Sequence record: MZ956761.1
Length of the DNA stretch: 64,000 bases
Source of the DNA: a phage
Direction: 5' to 3' (one strand)
Notes under the pieces: model-generated
The model's input: the letters and a program-made list of their open reading frames with translations, nothing else
What the model was told of the DNA's origin: nothing
Databases searched by the model: none
Made by a program: the position numbers and the translations under genes
Part shown: in pieces, positions 2,711-20,459 of the stretch
How positions within the stretch are numbered: the stretch's first letter is position 1
How the letters are laid out: every line of letters starts with the position of its first letter

Positions 2711-4409
2711 TTGTGTATTGACCAGATGAAATAGAATTCATAGATGCCATTTTTTCTGTCCAATCACCACCAACGTCCCAATCAACTGTCCCAGCAACTT
2801 TCCAAGAAAGATTTCCATTTACTGTGTTAGTTTGATTTCCTTCAACTAAAGTGGTAGCATCTCCTTTAACTGTAATGTCAGCATTACCTTCAACTATAAT
2901 AGTAACATTACCTTTAACTAGGATAGTTCCATTACCTTCAACAGTTTTCGTTTCGTCGCCGCGCACAAATATTGTATTGCTTCCATCTATTTGGTGAAGA
3001 CGATTATCCATGTTGTAATAAATTTCTGATCCACCGACGTTAGTCTTTTTATCACCGGCTACCAAAAAATTACCATCAGCATTTGTTATATCATACAAAT
3101 TATCAACAGTTTTTCTTGTTCTTCTTCCTGACGGTGATACTTCTTCATAAGTTCCAGTTGGATGAACTAATCTGTATCGTTCTTGCCCAGGGGTATCATC
3201 AAATTCCTGAATATGTCCGCTTTCAGTTTCCATTGTATGCACATAAGGATATTCGCCTTTATATGAAGAAACTGGTTCTTTGAATAAAATTCTCGAGTCA
3301 TTTGGAATAGGAGGATCAGCAGGGTCAGAAGATTTAGCTACAGTAGCAGCCATTGCAGATAAAGACCTAGCTGGTGTTTTCACTTCAACACCATATGATT
3401 CCAAATTTCCCGTAAGAATAATCATGGTAACACGGGATGCACGACCTTTTGTTTGTTGATACCACAATGAATCACGACCGGCTTTATATGCTTTTTCCCA
3501 ATCTCCTGCTAACATAGCAGTTAACATTGTGTTAAATTTAGCGACACCACCAACACCCATCTGAAATGCCATATTTTCTAATGCCATTTGACGAGAACGG
3601 TTGACAGCTTGCCAGACTGGTCCTACTTTAGAATGTGATTTAATGTCACGTTGCATATCAGCCAAATCACGCTCAAATAAAGCTGTCGCTTCTTCCATTG
3701 TAATAGAACCTGGATTTCCTGTAATTTCACGACCAACTTGTTTTGATAAAACTTTATTAATTTGAGCCATATCACGAACTGGCTGCTTCATGATAAGATG
3801 ACCAATACCAATTGTCGGATATCCTTCGGTATCCCAATAAACTTTTAGTCTTAATCCTTCATCACGGCGAAGCATTTCAGCCATTGACATATTTGGATTA
3901 TCATCGGTTGGAATCTCTGATAGTGGTCTATCATCGGGATTTATTGCGGTGTCTAAGTTACTATCTTGGATAATGTTAGAAGACGAATCATATCCTACTT
4001 CTCCGCCTTGGTTTAGTACGTTCGTATCATTTCCTAAACGTCTAGGATACTGCCCAGTTGGGTCAGAAAATCCTTCAAGTCTATTCGGTTTTTCGCGAAC
4101 TATTCCACCATACGTGCCAAGGACAATTCCGTTAGTTTTCCATTTGTCTAAAAAATGACCATAAACTCTAGTTCCTTCTACTGGCCCTGTAACAGAACCT
4201 CCAATTCCTGACATTGCTGCAGAAGTTATAGGTTGAATAACTGACATCCATGGTAATTTTTCAGTTGGAATACCCATTACATCACCTTGTGCTCTTTGAG
4301 GTGGATGCAAACCAACCACACGAACACGAACACGACCTAATTTTAATGGGTCCATTCTATCTTCAACAACACCAACAAACCAATTAAGGTTATTACTTAT
4401 CATTTCCAT
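2682..4409 (-). CDS. 5: Baseplate hub subunit and tail lysozyme gp5
   Basis: 575 aa; internal lysozyme-like segment (LRLKVYWDTEGYPTIGIGHL) resembling e lysozyme in this window; C-terminal VEGN-type beta-helix repeats. Confidence 0.9.
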   Translation of the reverse strand: MEMISNNLNWFVGVVEDRMDPLKLGRVRVRVVGLHPPQRAQGDVMGIPTEKLPWMSVIQPITSAAMSGIGGSVTGPVEGTRVYGHFLDKWKTNGIVLGTYGGIVREKPNRLEGFSDPTGQYPRRLGNDTNVLNQGGEVGYDSSSNIIQDSNLDTAINPDDRPLSEIPTDDNPNMSMAEMLRRDEGLRLKVYWDTEGYPTIGIGHLIMKQPVRDMAQINKVLSKQVGREITGNPGSITMEEATALFERDLADMQRDIKSHSKVGPVWQAVNRSRQMALENMAFQMGVGGVAKFNTMLTAMLAGDWEKAYKAGRDSLWYQQTKGRASRVTMIILTGNLESYGVEVKTPARSLSAMAATVAKSSDPADPPIPNDSRILFKEPVSSYKGEYPYVHTMETESGHIQEFDDTPGQERYRLVHPTGTYEEVSPSGRRTRKTVDNLYDITNADGNFLVAGDKKTNVGGSEIYYNMDNRLHQIDGSNTIFVRGDETKTVEGNGTILVKGNVTIIVEGNADITVKGDATTLVEGNQTNTVNGNLSWKVAGTVDWDVGGDWTEKMASMNSISSGQYTIDGSRIDIG

Positions 4410-4983
4410 AAGATTTCTCCATTATACGTATAAGGTCGTTCATAAATGAATTGATGTCTGATTTTGCTATTATTTTTATTTGACGAAGTTTTTCATTTTC
4501 AAGAACAGCCGCTTCATACGTATCGACCGCAGCAAGTGCTCCTTCATATTGAGGATATTTTCTAGCTTTATCGCCTTTATCATACCAAACATATGGATTA
4601 TCATCGTATGATATTAAATTATAAAATTTTTCACCGTTCTCATTCACATGATATACTATCTGGTCTCCACCCACATTTTTGTATTTTTGTATAGATGCTT
4701 GATAAGCTGCTTCTTGTGAAGTAATCCATCCATAATATGGATCATAATTATCATTACACATCAATAAAACCCAATACAGCTGTGGATTTCCATATATAGT
4801 ATTTGCTAATTCTTCCGGGCGTGGTGAACCTTTAATATAGTAAGTACGTAAGCGGTATCCCGCAAGAGCGCGTTTAAAATAGTCTTTATAGTTTCTAAAA
4901 ATATCTGTCATAGGAATAGTCGGCGCGTTTTTATTCACCGTTTTGGCCGCATATTCAATCGGATCAAAAAATGTAAAGAGCAT
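4393..4983 (-). CDS. 53: Baseplate wedge subunit gp53
   Basis: 196 aa ORF immediately upstream of gene 5 on same strand; length and order as T4 gp53. Confidence 0.8.
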   Translation of the reverse strand: MLFTFFDPIEYAAKTVNKNAPTIPMTDIFRNYKDYFKRALAGYRLRTYYIKGSPRPEELANTIYGNPQLYWVLLMCNDNYDPYYGWITSQEAAYQASIQKYKNVGGDQIVYHVNENGEKFYNLISYDDNPYVWYDKGDKARKYPQYEGALAAVDTYEAAVLENEKLRQIKIIAKSDINSFMNDLIRIMEKSYGNDK

Positions 4984-4996
4984 GGGCCCTCCTGTT

Positions 4997-5004
4997 TATA
5001 AATA
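4997..5004 (+). promoter_or_regulatory. T4-type late promoter motif TATAAATA upstream of gene 4
   Basis: Exact TATAAATA about 27 nt before ATG 5031. Confidence 0.5.
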
Positions 5005-5011
5005 TATTATC

Positions 5012-5019
5012 TATTTATA
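5012..5019 (-). promoter_or_regulatory. T4-type late promoter motif TATAAATA (minus strand) upstream of gene 53
   Basis: Reverse complement of tatttata at 5012-5019, upstream of minus-strand start at 4983. Confidence 0.5.
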
Positions 5020-5030
5020 AGGAGAATCCA

Positions 5031-5483
5031 ATGGCATATTCTGGAAAATGGGTTCCTAAAAATATATCAAAATATAGAGGTGACCCTAAAAAAATTACGT
5101 ATAGATCAAATTGGGAAAAATTCTTTTTTGAATGGTTAGATAAAAATCCAGAAATTATTGCATGGGGTAGTGAAACAGCAGTAATTCCTTATTTTTGTAA
5201 TGCAGAAGGGAAAAAACGTAGATACTTCATGGATATTTGGATGAAAGATTCTTCTGGACAAGAATTTTTTATTGAAATAAAACCTAAAAAAGAAACACAA
5301 CCACCAGTTAAACCAGCACATCTAACAACTGCAGCGAAGAAAAGATTTATGAATGAAATTTATACCTGGTCTGTGAACACTGACAAATGGAAAGCAGCAC
5401 AATCTTTAGCTGAAAAGCGTGGAATAAAATTTAGAATTTTAACAGAAGATGGATTACGAGCTCTTGGCTTTAAGGGGGCATAA
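5031..5483 (+). CDS. 4: Head completion protein gp4
   Basis: 150 aa; divergent from gene 53, followed by genes 2 and 3 as in T4. Confidence 0.8.
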
Positions 5484-8812: not shown

Positions 8813-9046
8813 ATGAAAACTTATCAAGAATTTATTGCTGAAACTGCTGATGTAAAAGTTGAGTTTATTTATACTGACAAGAAAGATAAAATGGGTGAAA
8901 TGCCTCATGGAGTTCTTCGCGATGCATTAGATAATTTCGGTCAACTCGCTGCAGAAGATTACGGTGATAAAATTGTTGTTACTGGTCCTGCTGCAGTTAT
9001 TGAAAAATGGGCAGCAGAAAATAAATCAATTTTTCGTAAAAAATAA
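8813..9046 (+). CDS. Internal protein (IPI-locus type), CTS MKTYQEFIAE
   Basis: 77 aa from ATG 8813 (RBS GGAGAA); exact T4 internal-protein N-terminal decapeptide. Confidence 0.6.
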   Translation: MKTYQEFIAETADVKVEFIYTDKKDKMGEMPHGVLRDALDNFGQLAAEDYGDKIVVTGPAAVIEKWAAENKSIFRKK

Positions 9047-9076
9047 GTTTACTTTTAGATAGGGTAGTGATACTAT
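9047..9076 (+). promoter_or_regulatory. Early promoter, copy 3 of repeated cassette
   Basis: GTTTAC 9047-9052, TACTAT 9071-9076; -10 flanked by 9-bp dyad GATAGGGTA/TACCCTATC. Confidence 0.55.
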
Positions 9077-9104
9077 TACCCTATCAACTACTGAGGAGAA
9101 TAAA

Positions 9105-9290
9105 ATGAAACGTTGTGAATTAATTCGAAATGTTGCTATTGCAATTTCTGCTTCTGCTTTTAGTTTTTCAATGTTTGTTGGATTTATATGCGGATTATTG
9201 ACTACAGCAGAAAATGTTTTTTCACTTGTAGTAGCATTTTTAATTGGTTTAATTGCTATCGTTATGGATAAAATTTCTAAAGGTGAATAG
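9105..9290 (+). CDS. Small membrane protein
   Basis: 61 aa, two hydrophobic segments; RBS GAGGAGAA. Confidence 0.45.
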   Translation: MKRCELIRNVAIAISASAFSFSMFVGFICGLLTTAENVFSLVVAFLIGLIAIVMDKISKGE

Positions 9291-15459: not shown

Positions 15460-15944
15460 TTTTAAAAACTCGCTGGTATGATTTAGATGATGGGGATGAT
15501 GGCATTTCAGTTGATAGAGTTGACTGGAATGGTTGTTCCGAAGATATGAAAAATTTGTTGATTAGGGAGTTTAGAATGGGATATCAAGCAGCTAAGCCAT
15601 TTACTGTAACAGATGATAAGTTCGTATGTATTCAAAACGGTCGCGCTAAGTTAACGAATGCTGATTGGTTCACAGATAAGAAGGTTCTTCTGTGGTATAT
15701 CATTAGTCTTCCTATATCATCGTTCGTATTTTACTTTTTTATAAAAAATCCAATGGACAGAATAGGAGATTGGGTTCTTTTAACTATACTTGTTAATATT
15801 TTTACAGCAGCAGTATTATCAGGAATATGGTACATGTTCATTGAAATGCCATGGCGGTTACGCAGACAGCAAAAGATTTTTGATGAAAAGAAATATACTC
15901 AAAATTTAAATAACTTTATCACTGAATGCAGGAAATTAAAATGA
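15456..15944 (+). CDS. Membrane protein, tandem paralog family member 3
   Basis: 162 aa, soluble N-part plus two hydrophobic helices, C-terminal FITECRKLK. Confidence 0.5.
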   Translation: MILKTRWYDLDDGDDGISVDRVDWNGCSEDMKNLLIREFRMGYQAAKPFTVTDDKFVCIQNGRAKLTNADWFTDKKVLLWYIISLPISSFVFYFFIKNPMDRIGDWVLLTILVNIFTAAVLSGIWYMFIEMPWRLRRQQKIFDEKKYTQNLNNFITECRKLK

Positions 15945-16381
15945 AAACACTATCAGCTGGTATTATCTTTATGACAGAAGATAAAGATTTATTTATGGGT
16001 CGGGTTACTGGTTCTCGTAAGCCTGGAATGATGGCACACCGCTGGGATATTCCAAAGGGCCGTGTAGAAAATTCTGATTTAAGCGCATTAGATGCAGCAC
16101 GAAGAGAATGTTTAGAAGAGACTGGTTTTAGCAATTATAATCCAGACCTTCTAGAAGACCTAGGTGTATTTAAATATTCTAGTAATAAAGACCTACAGTT
16201 ATTTTATTATACGATTCCAGTAGAGCATGAGATGTTTAGAAATTGCCATTGCGAGTCTTATTTTGAAAATAAAGACGGTGTTATGATTCCAGAGATGGAC
16301 GCTTTTGCTCTTATTCCTCGTACTCAGTGGCAATATGTGATGGGTCCTTCACTTTACCGAATAATGAACAACCTCTTTTAA
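15926..16381 (+). CDS. nudE: Nudix hydrolase NudE
   Basis: 151 aa; Nudix box GRVENSDLSALDAARRECLEETGF; directly upstream of e. Confidence 0.8.
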   Translation: MQEIKMKTLSAGIIFMTEDKDLFMGRVTGSRKPGMMAHRWDIPKGRVENSDLSALDAARRECLEETGFSNYNPDLLEDLGVFKYSSNKDLQLFYYTIPVEHEMFRNCHCESYFENKDGVMIPEMDAFALIPRTQWQYVMGPSLYRIMNNLF

Positions 16382-16912
<531 letters not shown>

Positions 16913-16916
16913 AGTT

Positions 16917-16946
16917 GTTTACTTTCTCCTAGAATTGTGATAGTAT
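16917..16946 (+). promoter_or_regulatory. Early promoter (GTTTAC-N18-TAGTAT)
   Basis: Directly after e stop, upstream of internal-protein gene. Confidence 0.5.
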
Positions 16947-16983
16947 ATTCACAGTTACTAATTAAAATATTTAAAGGAAACAC

Positions 16984-17301
16984 ATGAAAACGTATAAAGA
17001 ATTTATTGCAGAATCTGCTGCAGGACAACGTGTAGAAGGCGGTTATATCTGGATTGAACAAGTTGAGCCGCCGAGTCGCACTTCTACGGGTAAATGGAAA
17101 ATCACTGTTGATGGTCCTGGTGGTAAACGTAGGACTCTTAAAGAAATTAACGGGTACTATGAAGAAGCTCTTTCTGACGCGGGTACTTATATGATGCAAA
17201 TCATGATTAAAAACCCAGAAAATCGTTTTGCGGCTAGAGTTTTCCGCCGTATTGGAAATAAGCTTTATGATGCATATTCTAAAAACTTTCCTAAAGAATA
17301 A
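16984..17301 (+). CDS. Internal protein (CTS MKTYKEFIAE)
   Basis: 105 aa; CTS-type N-terminus with I-A-E site; IPII/IPIII locus position. Confidence 0.6.
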   Translation: MKTYKEFIAESAAGQRVEGGYIWIEQVEPPSRTSTGKWKITVDGPGGKRRTLKEINGYYEEALSDAGTYMMQIMIKNPENRFAARVFRRIGNKLYDAYSKNFPKE

Positions 17302-17317
17302 AAATTAAAGGATACAC

Positions 17318-17791
17318 ATGAAAACATATCAAGAATTTATTACTGAAGCAGCTATTAATTCTCAAATTATTGCTGAATCTTTTACTGATCTTTTGAAATT
17401 TAAAAAAGGTCAAAAAATCACTGCTGTATTGGATGATGGTACAGAAGTTGAGATGGATGTACAGGGATATAATTATGCAGTAGATGGAAAACTGTATAAT
17501 AAATCTCATGCTAAATTTGATTCATTTGACGACTTTGTTAATACAGTTGAAGATGAAAAAACTCGTAGATCCATTGCAACTGGTGATGCTAAGGTTCTTA
17601 TGGCACATGGTCATGAACGCATTCGCGCTAAACAGAATAAAATGGGTGAAGATAATTTTGCATTAGTTGGTTATCAATCTGGTAAACAAACTTATGGCTA
17701 TCAGCGTACTGCTACCATGTATAACAAAAATGGTAAAATCGCTTTCGTGAATAGCAAAGGCTCTATTCAGTACGTCAAATCATTCAAATAA
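17318..17791 (+). CDS. Internal protein (CTS MKTYQEFITE)
   Basis: 157 aa; CTS-type N-terminus. Confidence 0.6.
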   Translation: MKTYQEFITEAAINSQIIAESFTDLLKFKKGQKITAVLDDGTEVEMDVQGYNYAVDGKLYNKSHAKFDSFDDFVNTVEDEKTRRSIATGDAKVLMAHGHERIRAKQNKMGEDNFALVGYQSGKQTYGYQRTATMYNKNGKIAFVNSKGSIQYVKSFK

Positions 17792-17944
17792 GCAAATAAG
17801 AAATATGGGAACAAGCTGGACCTCATGATTCTATGAGGGATTCCCGCCAACCTGTAATAAGGTCGAGCCCAAGCGCGGTAATGGGTAAATACAGAAATGG
17901 ACAATTCATGCGCCATGGAATGGCCCAAATTTAGAGAGAATAAA

Positions 17945-18484
17945 ATGAGAACATTTTTAACTGGTCCTTATCTATCCCTGATGAATGCTTTTACACACCA
18001 TTCTGATGCTAGAGTAGAAGAAATTTGTAAAAACGAATATATCCCGCCATTTGAAGACTTACTCAAACAGTACTGCACACTTCGCATAGATGGTGGACGT
18101 CAATCCGGCAAATCAATTGCTGTGACTAACTTTGCTGCTAATTGGCTGTATGATGGCGGAACAGTTATTGTTCTTTCTAATACTTCAGCTTACGCTAAAA
18201 TTTCTGCAAATAACATCAAAAAGGAATTTTCGCGTTATTCTAATGATGATATACGTTTTCGTTTATTTACTGATTCTGTGCGCAGTTTTATTGGTAATAA
18301 AGGAAGCAAGTTCAGAGGTTTATCGCTTTCGCGAATTTTGTATATAATTGATGAGCCTGTCAAATCTCCTGATATGGATAAGATTTATAGTGTCCATATT
18401 GACACTGTACACTACTGCTGTAATAGTAAATGTTGCATTGGTGGTATTACTCGTCCGCAGTTTTTCGTAATCGGAATGCAATGA
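17945..18484 (+). CDS. Small P-loop NTPase-like protein
   Basis: 179 aa from ATG 17945 (RBS GAGAGAATAAA); Walker A-like DGGRQSGKS and Walker B-like ILYIIDEP; where T4 has denV. Confidence 0.45.
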   Translation: MRTFLTGPYLSLMNAFTHHSDARVEEICKNEYIPPFEDLLKQYCTLRIDGGRQSGKSIAVTNFAANWLYDGGTVIVLSNTSAYAKISANNIKKEFSRYSNDDIRFRLFTDSVRSFIGNKGSKFRGLSLSRILYIIDEPVKSPDMDKIYSVHIDTVHYCCNSKCCIGGITRPQFFVIGMQ

Positions 18485-18810
18485 TGACAGATACACAGCT
18501 TTTCGAATATCTCTATTTTTCGCCAAAAACTATTAAAAATAAATTGGTAAATCATTTTGAAATTTTGGCAAATAACAACATTTTGAGCGAATTTTATCCC
18601 AAGCAATACAAATTACAAAAAGGTGTATTCAAAGGATGCAGAGTTTTGTGCACTGCTCCTAATGCACGGCTAATGAATAAAATTCCATATTTTACCATGG
18701 AATTTATTGATGGACCTTTTAAAGGATTAATTACGCAAAGTTTAATGGCATATGATTCTGAGCCGTTTTTAATTAAAGAACAATCTTGGATAAATTTATT
18801 TTCTAATTGA
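18481..18810 (+). CDS. Hypothetical protein, translationally coupled to upstream NTPase-like gene
   Basis: 109 aa from ATGATG overlapping upstream TGA. Confidence 0.4.
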
Positions 18811-18817
18811 GGTTTAT

Positions 18818-19180
18818 ATGAAAGCATATCAAATTCTTGAAGGCACACATAAAGGTACTATTTATTTTGAAGATGGTATTCAGGCACGAATTATTGTCTC
18901 TAAAACCTTTAAAGAGGACTCTTTTGTAGACCCAGAAATTTTCTATGGTTTGCACGCCCGTGAAATTGAAATTGAAACACAACCTACAGTTAAAATTGAA
19001 GGTGGTCAGCACCTGAACGTTAACGTTCTGCGTCGTGAAACTTTGGAAGATGCAGTTAAGCATCCGGAAAAATATCCGCAGCTGACCATCCGTGTATCCG
19101 GTTATGCAGTTCGCTTTAACTCTCTGACTCCGGAACAGCAGCGCGACGTTATCGCTCGTACCTTTACTGAGAGTCTGTAA
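18818..19180 (+). CDS. Autonomous glycyl radical cofactor (GrcA/YfiD-like)
   Basis: 120 aa; C-terminal [61 protein letters not shown] is the glycyl-radical motif region of enterobacterial GrcA. Confidence 0.8.
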
Positions 19181-19401
19181 TGGCAAAGATAATTATTGAA
19201 GGTTCTAAAGATGTGCTAAATGCTTTCGCAGAATGGTTTAGTAATTCAGGCGAACAGCAATTTAATGAAGCGTGGAATATGGGTGATATTAGTGGAATTT
19301 ATCCTACGACAGAAATTTCTGTTCAGGGATATGGCATTCATGAACCTATTCGTTTAGTTGAATATGATTTATGTACTGGTGAGGAAGTCAAATATGATTG
19401 A
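19180..19401 (+). CDS. Hypothetical protein
   Basis: 73 aa ORF, ATG overlapping upstream stop. Confidence 0.45.
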   Translation: MAKIIIEGSKDVLNAFAEWFSNSGEQQFNEAWNMGDISGIYPTTEISVQGYGIHEPIRLVEYDLCTGEEVKYD

Positions 19402-19997: not shown

Positions 19998-20459
19998 ATG
20001 ACTATCAATACAGAAGTTTTTATCCGTCGAAATAAGCTTCGTCGTCACTTTGAGTCGGAGTTTCGTCAAATTAACAATGAGATTCGTGAGGCATCAAAAG
20101 CAGCAGGGGTCTCATCGTTTCATCTAAAATATTCTCAGCATCTTCTTGATCGCGCAATTCAACGGGAGATTGATGAGACATATGTTTTTGAATTATTCCA
20201 TAAAATAAAAGACCATGTTTTAGAAGTTAATGAATTCCTGAGTATGCCTCCGCGTCCTGACATTGACGAGGATTTTATTGATGGGGTTGAATATCGTCCT
20301 GGACGTTTAGAAATCACAGATGGAAATCTTTGGCTTGGATTTACAGTTTGTAAACCTAATGCGAAGTTCAAAGACCCGTCACTTCAATGTAGGATGGCAA
20401 TTATCAACAGTCGTCGTTTACCAGGAAAGGCTTCTAAAGCAGTAATTAAAACTCAATGA
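19998..20459 (+). CDS. regB: Probable RegB endoribonuclease
   Basis: 153 aa basic protein; size and position between e-IP block and tk. Confidence 0.55.
   Translation: MTINTEVFIRRNKLRRHFESEFRQINNEIREASKAAGVSSFHLKYSQHLLDRAIQREIDETYVFELFHKIKDHVLEVNEFLSMPPRPDIDEDFIDGVEYRPGRLEITDGNLWLGFTVCKPNAKFKDPSLQCRMAIINSRRLPGKASKAVIKTQ

Follow-up and report, generated by a model that had tools for sequence, protein, structure and literature searches.

A gene pair between the internal-protein genes and regB was analysed in a 64,000-nt stretch of sequence record MZ956761.1 (hereafter the window), which represents a T-even (Tequatrovirus) phage genome written on the strand opposite to T4 numbering. The first gene is a 179-aa open reading frame (ORF) that carries the motifs GGRQSGKS and IIDEP and runs from an ATG at 17945 to a stop at 18482–18484, and the second is a coupled 109-aa ORF whose start overlaps that stop as ATGA. 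The original prediction had described the two ORFs in these terms, and both are present (Table 1). From their sequences and gene context, they are orthologs of T4 vs.8 (NP_049732; phrog_1488) and vs.7 (NP_049731; phrog_2049, PF26834), and the pair is already known as the catalogued vs.8/vs.7 cassette of T4. Vs.8 of the window differs from the core of T4 Vs.8 (residues 41–219) at 2 of 179 residues, the two T4 genes have the same order, ATGA overlap and vs.6-to-regB neighbours, and the record of phage PP01, which is annotated with T4 gene names, labels these two ORFs vs.8 and vs.7. T4 differs from the window in having denV directly upstream of vs.8, where the window has an ipIV-type gene instead, and in a recorded vs.8 product of 219 aa that starts 40 codons further upstream.

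A 2.4-kb query around vs.8/vs.7 matched 834 phage records, and Vs.8 was found in 1010 phage records and Vs.7 in 930. Many phage records label both proteins "endoribonuclease (RegB)", which looks like a mis-annotation propagated from the nearby regB, and others label Vs.8 "DNA packaging protein" or "putative large terminase subunit".

Table 1. Features in and around the vs.8/vs.7 interval (positions refer to the window).
Feature	Position	Strand	Evidence or remark
nudE	15926–16381	+	context
lysozyme e	16418–16912	+	context
e-to-ip10 spacer with early-promoter-like GTTTAC...TAGTAT and stem-loop	16913–16983	+	empty denV slot; alignment to teqhal
ip10-type internal head protein gene, in place of T4 ipIII/ipII	16984–17301	+	99% identical to PP01 ip10
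ipIV-type internal head protein gene	17318–17791	+	Pfam DUF7412, E 5.7e-96
GC-rich conserved vs.8 leader, read as non-coding	17807–17927	+	frame breaks, indels and cross-genus nucleotide conservation
core of the predicted structured RNA motif	17845–17887	+	covariance model, covarying P1
vs.8, putative stand-alone P-loop protein, 179 aa	17945–18484	+	98.9% identity to T4 Vs.8 residues 41–219
vs.7, orphan, 109 aa	18481–18810	+	99.1% identity to T4 Vs.7; phrog_2049, 3e-54
vs.6, GrcA/YfiD-like autonomous glycyl-radical cofactor	18818–19180	+	Pfam Gly_radical, 2.2e-18; 98.3% identity to T4 Vs.6

Vs.8 and the terminase ATPase

Vs.8 contains a Walker A motif of the form GxxxxGK[ST] (G50-G-R-Q-S-G-K56-S57, nt 18092–18115) and a Walker B motif of the form hhhhD followed by a catalytic Glu (I134-I-D136-E137-P, nt 18344–18358; full strand L132-YIID136-E137), as in P-loop (ASCE) nucleoside triphosphatases (NTPases), and its fold is of the RecA-like alpha/beta type. 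Conservation was assessed in a family set of 34 Vs.8 members ranging from 88% down to 21% identity. G55 is invariant, and G51, R52, Q53, K56, R113 and G177 are at least 90% conserved, while the acidic Walker B pair (DE or EE) and the C-terminal P-x-FFVIGMQ strand are kept by most members. Judged from this alignment, the Walker motifs are not a chance occurrence, and Vs.8 would be expected to bind or hydrolyse ATP.

Pfam searches with Vs.8 of the window returned only sub-threshold P-loop matches (AAA_14, Terminase_6N and AAA_30), and 21 of the 34 members matched Terminase_6N weakly, with scores under the gathering threshold. The best PHROGs match was phrog_1488 (unknown function, 3e-79), followed by phrog_2, the terminase large subunit (6.8e-6). 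Alignment of the 34-member profile with residues 1–360 of the T4 terminase gp17 using hhalign gave a probability of 87.9% and an E value of 3.2e-6, pairing (Vs.8/gp17) G51-RQSGKS with S161-RQLGKT167, FR124G with VR245G, and IID136-E137 with YID255-E256, and ending at residue 263–271 of the 610 residues of gp17. When the same profile was searched against all Protein Data Bank (PDB) sequences, the gp17 chains 3ezk, 2o0h and 3cpe ranked as the top three, with E values of 1.3e-3 to 3e-3. Among PDB sequences, a narrow profile built from 13 Vs.8 sequences picked up only weak matches of a generic P-loop kind (UvrA), and the best BLASTP alignment of Vs.8 with gp17 was out of register and was not used. 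NCBIfam and PADLOC returned nothing meaningful for Vs.8 or Vs.7.

The features that Vs.8 has in common with N-subdomain I of gp17 (PDB 2O0H, 3CPE and 3EZK) are a RecA-like ASCE core, a Walker A motif with the terminase-type Arg-Gln (xRQxGK[ST]), an Arg-Gly pair before Walker B, and an hhhhDE Walker B with the catalytic Glu, and the last beta-strand of Vs.8 sits at the position of the gp17 coupling motif; identity is ~20% over ~95 aligned residues. Vs.8 differs from gp17 in lacking the N-terminal gp16-binding region, subdomain II (the lid), the nuclease domain and the portal-binding elements, and in a first hhalign pass the adenine-binding Gln143 of gp17 had no conserved Vs.8 counterpart. No C-terminal RNase H-like nuclease domain was found in Vs.8 or Vs.7, and Vs.8 ends at residue 179, after the last core strand. 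Without the lid, the nuclease domain and the portal-binding region, Vs.8 would be unable to package or cut DNA. The genomic setting differs as well, with vs.8 an accessory gene of the early e–regB region and the gp17 gene part of the late structural module, and no gp16-like neighbour of vs.8 was found (hhalign of Vs.7 against gp16, probability 0.1%). On this profile evidence, Vs.8 is a stand-alone homolog of the gp17 ATPase subdomain I, terminase-ATPase-like and not a terminase; its sequence points to an intact, selected terminase-type nucleotide-binding site, with no motor, nuclease or portal parts. Sequence and structural similarity of Vs.8 to the gp17 ATPase, including the Walker A and B motifs, has already been reported in a preprint of May 2026 (bioRxiv 10.64898/2026.04.30.721860), and for the larger ORF the statement "function unknown" in the original prediction is out of date, given this homology and the toxicity with EcAvs2 reported in the same preprint.

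In fold searches against BFVD, matches to Vs.8 included stand-alone Vs.8-like proteins of ~145–175 aa in phiKZ-like jumbo phages, Ralstonia phiRSL1, Vibrio JSF10 and Aeromonas/Acinetobacter T4-like phages, which hints that minimal P-loop domains form a far broader family.

Alternatively, Vs.8/Vs.7 could be a small functional ATPase that serves in nucleic-acid transactions, as a minimal helicase-, loader- or remodeller-like motor in early replication, recombination or on RNA, with no special link to immunity. This would account for the conservation of all catalytic motifs, for the weak Pfam matches of some members to AAA_30, AAA_19, UvrD, DEAD and PhoH, and for the similar stand-alone domains of ~150–175 aa in many jumbo and T4-like phages. 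We consider this unlikely, because Vs.8 is one 179-aa RecA-like domain without a second RecA domain or helicase motifs Ia, III and VI, because the profiles favour terminase over helicase, and because the gene, missing from T6 and disrupted in T2, is dispensable and lies in a variable accessory region beside a known anti-defence gene. Set against the features of SF2 helicases, Walker A and B alone were recognisable in this single domain, and the DEAD and UvrD matches were marginal, at 2 of the 34 members each.

The part of gp17 to which Vs.8 is homologous is precisely the subdomain that makes up the interfaces of the ATPase ring, and this could instead reflect a role in regulating packaging. 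As an early truncated terminase ATPase, Vs.8 would associate with gp16, gp17 or the portal and restrain or adjust the packaging motor, either in a dominant-negative manner or as a timing subunit. The Arg-Gly pair of Vs.8 aligns with gp17 R245-G246, a position at which other terminases carry a trans-acting arginine. Same-genus phages T6 and T2 nevertheless package normally without Vs.8, Vs.8 has no counterpart of the gp17 regions in contact with the portal or small terminase, and no experimental hint of such a role was found in the literature searched; we rate a packaging regulator as slightly less probable again than a nucleic-acid ATPase.

Vs.7 and the leader upstream of vs.8

The vs.7 ATG overlaps the vs.8 stop in the context CAATGATGA, and an ATGA junction (GGAATGCAATGATGA) with a Vs.7 homolog after vs.8 is also found in Karamvirus, Kagamiyamavirus and Jiaodavirus. 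An overlap between vs.8 and the downstream ORF is present at most T4-like loci; at several other loci the coupled ORF fails a simple Vs.7 motif test, and Yersinia phage MHG19 has a vs.5-like ORF in place of vs.7. The Vs.7 family, with PF26834 precomputed on Vs.7 homologs, has the conserved core Y-x-F-x(2)-GPFKG ... P-x(3)-MN ... F-x(3)-F ... SSLITYD. The earlier description of a P-loop NTPase-like gene pair holds for Vs.8 and fails for Vs.7, in which no NTPase features were found. Homolog searches with Vs.7 returned close relatives only, and nothing similar to Vs.7 was detected in gp16, in gp17 (hhalign probability 0.1%) or among PDB sequences. A BFVD fold search yielded probable family members only, the best four being uncharacterised phage proteins with 25–41% identity, and no literature on Vs.7 was found. 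Based on the junction and the conserved core, Vs.7 is a conserved, co-translated orphan partner of Vs.8, and from the translational coupling we infer a complex of the two proteins.

A gap of 153 nt separates vs.8 from the ipIV-type gene. Most of it (17807–17927) is read by the T4 annotation as residues 1–40 of the 219-aa "Vs.8". Residues 1–32 and 26–219 of that protein match the window in different frames, and positions 4294–4413 of the T4 (NC_000866) locus stretch, equivalent to 17833–17934 of the window, are frameshifted in the window, PP01, T2 and teqhal, with leader indels of 1, 6 and 9 nt among relatives. Across genera, Vs.8 family members start with M-[RKN]-TFLT or MKYLT at a position equivalent to 17945 of the window, and the start of vs.8 in the T4 reference is probably placed 40 codons too far upstream. 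The leader nucleotides are conserved across genera whose Vs.8 proteins share 36–56% identity, and together these alignments indicate that the ~120 nt upstream of vs.8 form a conserved non-coding leader. In teqhal the vs.8 start codon is ATA and not ATG, and the gene is annotated in the teqhal record from an internal Met that lies 12 codons further on.

A blastn search with the 145-nt stretch 17800–17944 matched 1078 phage records, including rV5-like Vequintavirus phages, in which the match is limited to a core of ~45 nt with 91–93% identity. Pattern scans of IMG/VR revealed further copies of the core in ~45-kb siphovirus-like contigs and a 371-kb jumbo-phage contig, as well as tandem second copies. 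The core comprises a stem, P1 (17845–17849 with 17882–17887), around a near-invariant 32 nt, ACCUGUAAUAAGGUCGAGCCCAAGCGCGGUAA (17850–17881), with the consensus ACCUGURNWAAGGUCNAGCCNNNGNGCGGUAA among 45 distinct copies. Each of the three inner P1 pairs is formed in all 45 copies (100%), with 3–5 pair types, and the P1 covariation score of 0.32 compares with 0.085 ± 0.013 in shuffles (0 of 500 reach 0.32) and 0.03–0.08 in slid controls. U-G pairs favour the vs.8 sense strand for the RNA. A covariance model found one copy only in the window (17837–17895, 67.3 bits, E 2e-19) and no second copy, the tRNA cluster region included.

For the inner part of the core, the data fit a three-way junction composed of P1, an ACCU/AGGU hairpin and a GCC/G-GC triloop hairpin, with the variable positions at unpaired sites, and divergent copies show two double changes that are compensatory under this model. 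For the alternative, a long hairpin, zero compensatory changes were found, and the two models are not decisively separable. A G-to-U change in the T2 copy of the core disrupts one pair in each of the two inner-helix models. Tandem core copies, 85–115 nt apart, were observed in two T4-like IMG/VR contigs (5087–5256; 9015–9185) and one 44-kb contig (824–967), and the second copies carry compensatory changes that inform the inner helices.

Single-sequence folding of the leader was no better than that of shuffles on either strand (z −0.07 and −0.59), so that the case for an RNA rests on comparative data only. Rfam 15 gave no relevant match in 16800–19300 of the window (E of 1 or lower) or at five homologous loci (E up to 0.1), and a promoter and terminator scan showed no excess and no site in the leader. 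Copies in bacteria and archaea were also sought, and the 22 pattern matches in 185,579 genomes were no more than chance by our own estimate, the model matching only over the searched pattern; these were set aside.

Outside T4-like phages, no Walker-A ORF lies downstream of the motif, and at 8 loci it shares its strand with tRNA genes located about 160–700 nt away; in the 371-kb contig, no tRNA gene was found within the stretch read around the motif. Phage non-coding RNAs encoded beside tRNA genes include GOLLD, ROOL and the T4 stable RNAs C and D. Like these, the leader RNA is phage-borne and structured, and outside T4-like phages its core is found near tRNA clusters; it differs from them in being far smaller (~45-nt core) and, in T4-like phages, in being fixed upstream of vs.8. 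A literature search for a description of such an RNA found nothing relevant. We regard the core, from its covariation, as a real structured RNA module that is fixed as the vs.8 leader in T4-like phages. A more tentative proposal, to which we give slightly less than an even chance, is that it represents an undescribed phage RNA motif, also present beside tRNA clusters in rV5-like phages and siphovirus-like contigs, and forms at this locus a unit of RNA, terminase-ATPase mimic and partner that is possibly anti-defence or translation-linked. Under this proposal the RNA would be processed like the RNA of tRNA clusters, or would control vs.8 expression.

Gene order, denV and accessory status of the pair

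The order ip–vs.8–vs.7–vs.6–vs.5–vs.4–vs.3–regB is the same in the window, T4 and PP01, and the T4 reference reads e–ipIII–ipII–denV–vs.8–vs.7–vs.6 ... regB. In the window, vs.6 is the 3' neighbour of vs.7 in the same early gene string and is followed on the plus strand by vs.5, vs.4, vs.3, regB (19998–20459), vs.1, vs and tk.4. Upstream, the ip10-type protein has only the MKTYxEFI leader in common with T4 ipII/ipIII, and the ipIV-type protein is 100% identical to ipIV of PP01, teqhal and T2. The vs.5 ORF of the window (19180–19401) encodes 73 aa and is similar to a 74-aa protein of Yersinia phage MHG19; its alignment with the annotated 58-aa Vs.5 of T4 switches between two frames, which suggests a frameshift in the T4 version.

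No DenV homolog was found between the internal-protein genes and regB, or elsewhere in the 64-kb window (best tblastn E value for T4 DenV, 3.7). The same query does find DenV in T4 and in teqhal, whose DenV is 78% identical to that of T4. The absence noted in the original prediction thus stood up to closer inspection. Its placing of the pair in the denV slot of T4, instead of denV, did not: in T4, vs.8 and vs.7 lie directly downstream of denV, so nothing has replaced denV and the pair adjoins the slot. The slot of the window lineage is the e-to-ip10 spacer, which aligns base for base with teqhal except for a ~415-nt insert in the latter, consisting of a ribosome-binding site and denV. Among the nearest 40 relatives, denV was present in 18 and absent from the interval in 22, with the vs.8/vs.7 pair in all 40, and in those 18 denV lies between e and ip10, as in teqhal, and not at the T4 position. 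Since the positions in teqhal and T4 differ, denV behaves like a compact, independent cassette for which two or more insertion sites exist; the two seen here (ipII/vs.8 of T4 and e/ip10 of teqhal) are empty in the window. denV is simply absent from this phage, which is a common polymorphism among T-even phages.

A functional replacement of denV by the pair, as an NTP-dependent UV or DNA-repair module in the denV slot, has its position in its favour only, between the internal-protein genes and regB of a phage without denV. The likeness of the pair to T4 DenV (endonuclease V, a pyrimidine-dimer glycosylase) is one of neighbourhood only. We regard such a replacement as highly improbable, given that T4 and many relatives carry denV alongside vs.8/vs.7, that presence of the pair is independent of denV among the 40 relatives, and that the pair has no similarity to any repair protein family.

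In this interval, T4 carries the pair and denV together, T2 has a broken vs.8 and no denV at the locus, and the T6 locus lacks them all. In T6 (AP018814, locus 4951–5013) e is joined directly to regB, so that the ip genes, denV and vs.8 through vs.3 are missing. The junction sequence equals the promoter/stem-loop spacer between vs.3 and regB of the window, which suggests that the deletion occurred between repeated early-promoter/stem-loop cassettes. Such promoter cassettes drive shuffling in T4-type phages. In T2 (AP018813, 5757–6289) vs.8 is split over three frames, either as a pseudogene or by sequencing errors, and vs.7 is intact. T2 and T6 are classically more UV-sensitive than T4 for want of the v gene, and the absence of denV at their e–regB loci, a locus-level check, probably matches this difference; no open-access statement on denV in T2 or T6 was found. 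The vs.8/vs.7 pair is accessory and dispensable, being deleted in T6 and frameshifted in T2, and a ~3-kb T4 segment that includes vs.3–vs.8 can be moved into T6 by mating (PMC13243611).

The frameshifts in T2, the deletion in T6, the ATG-to-ATA change of the teqhal start codon and truncated Vs.8 versions on record might also mean that vs.8 is the degenerating remnant of a terminase gene duplication and lacks a function. This is very unlikely, as intact Vs.8 occurs in about 1000 phage genomes of five or more genera, the catalytic residues are clearly constrained, the length is fixed at ~175 aa, and the coupling to a partner ORF and the structured leader are conserved.

Possible role in immune conflict

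With a probability of roughly 0.55, we read the interval as a set of T-even accessory early genes, vs.8 and vs.7, behind a conserved structured leader, in which Vs.8, probably together with Vs.7, would be an ATP-binding mimic of the terminase ATPase in contest with terminase-sensing immunity. Vs.8 would bind ATP and present a terminase-ATPase-like surface early in infection, probably acting as a 1:1 complex with co-translated Vs.7, and would thereby take part in the conflict with host sensors of the Avs family, which detect the terminase ATPase. A decoy or anti-defence role of Vs.8 may be envisaged on this basis. Co-expression of T4 Vs.8 with EcAvs2, a terminase sensor, is reported to be toxic, and an AlphaFold 3 (AF3) model puts Vs.8 in the terminase pocket with ATP (bioRxiv 10.64898/2026.04.30.721860). 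The authors of that preprint leave the role of Vs.8 open, and raise anti-defence proteins as a possibility for such activators. The pair lies in a variable early region that also holds the gene for TadIV-1, the Thoeris-IV sponge encoded by the neighbouring vs.3; only Vs.3 countered type IV Thoeris (PMC13243611).

Two further non-terminase activators of Avs2, Ksap1 and Ksap2, resemble Vs.8 by their description: both are small phage proteins confined to certain lineages, carry a sheet like that of the terminase ATPase, have no known function for the phage, and cause toxicity when co-expressed with Avs2 (bioRxiv 10.64898/2026.04.30.721860). They come from other phage groups (Dhillonvirus and Stephanstirmvirinae), and Vs.8 differs from them in having recognisable sequence homology and Walker motifs, and in not having been shown as an Avs2 trigger during infection (bioRxiv 10.64898/2026.04.30.721860).

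Several results weigh against this reading of the pair. Vs.8 is reported to activate Avs2 (bioRxiv 10.64898/2026.04.30.721860), where a simple decoy would be expected to inhibit it, and Vs.4 to Vs.8 individually failed to counter type IV Thoeris (PMC13243611). The similarity to gp17 is weak, and is missed by single-sequence or narrow-profile searches with Vs.8. A HMMER profile search of 1.84 billion proteins (E up to 1e-3) returned 41 Vs.8 family members of ~41–260 aa and 0 full-length terminases, so the terminase link rests on the profile-profile comparison together with the PHROG and Pfam evidence. In a few distant Vs.8 members the Walker motifs are degenerate (K to H; DE replaced), and catalysis may not be universal in the family. 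Binding between Vs.8 and Vs.7 is presumptive, and the AlphaFold 2 (AF2) model of Vs.7 is unreliable (predicted local distance difference test score, pLDDT, of 52).

The analysis yields a corrected reading of the locus, a link between Vs.8 and terminase mimicry, a probable mis-annotation of the T4 vs.8 start, and an RNA motif. If really undescribed, this motif would be a new small class of phage RNA with an experimental handle in T4. Vs.8 belongs to a very small number of phage proteins that reproduce the terminase ATPase, which several bacterial immune sensors recognise, and the reason why a phage makes such a copy early and coupled to Vs.7 is now a testable question.

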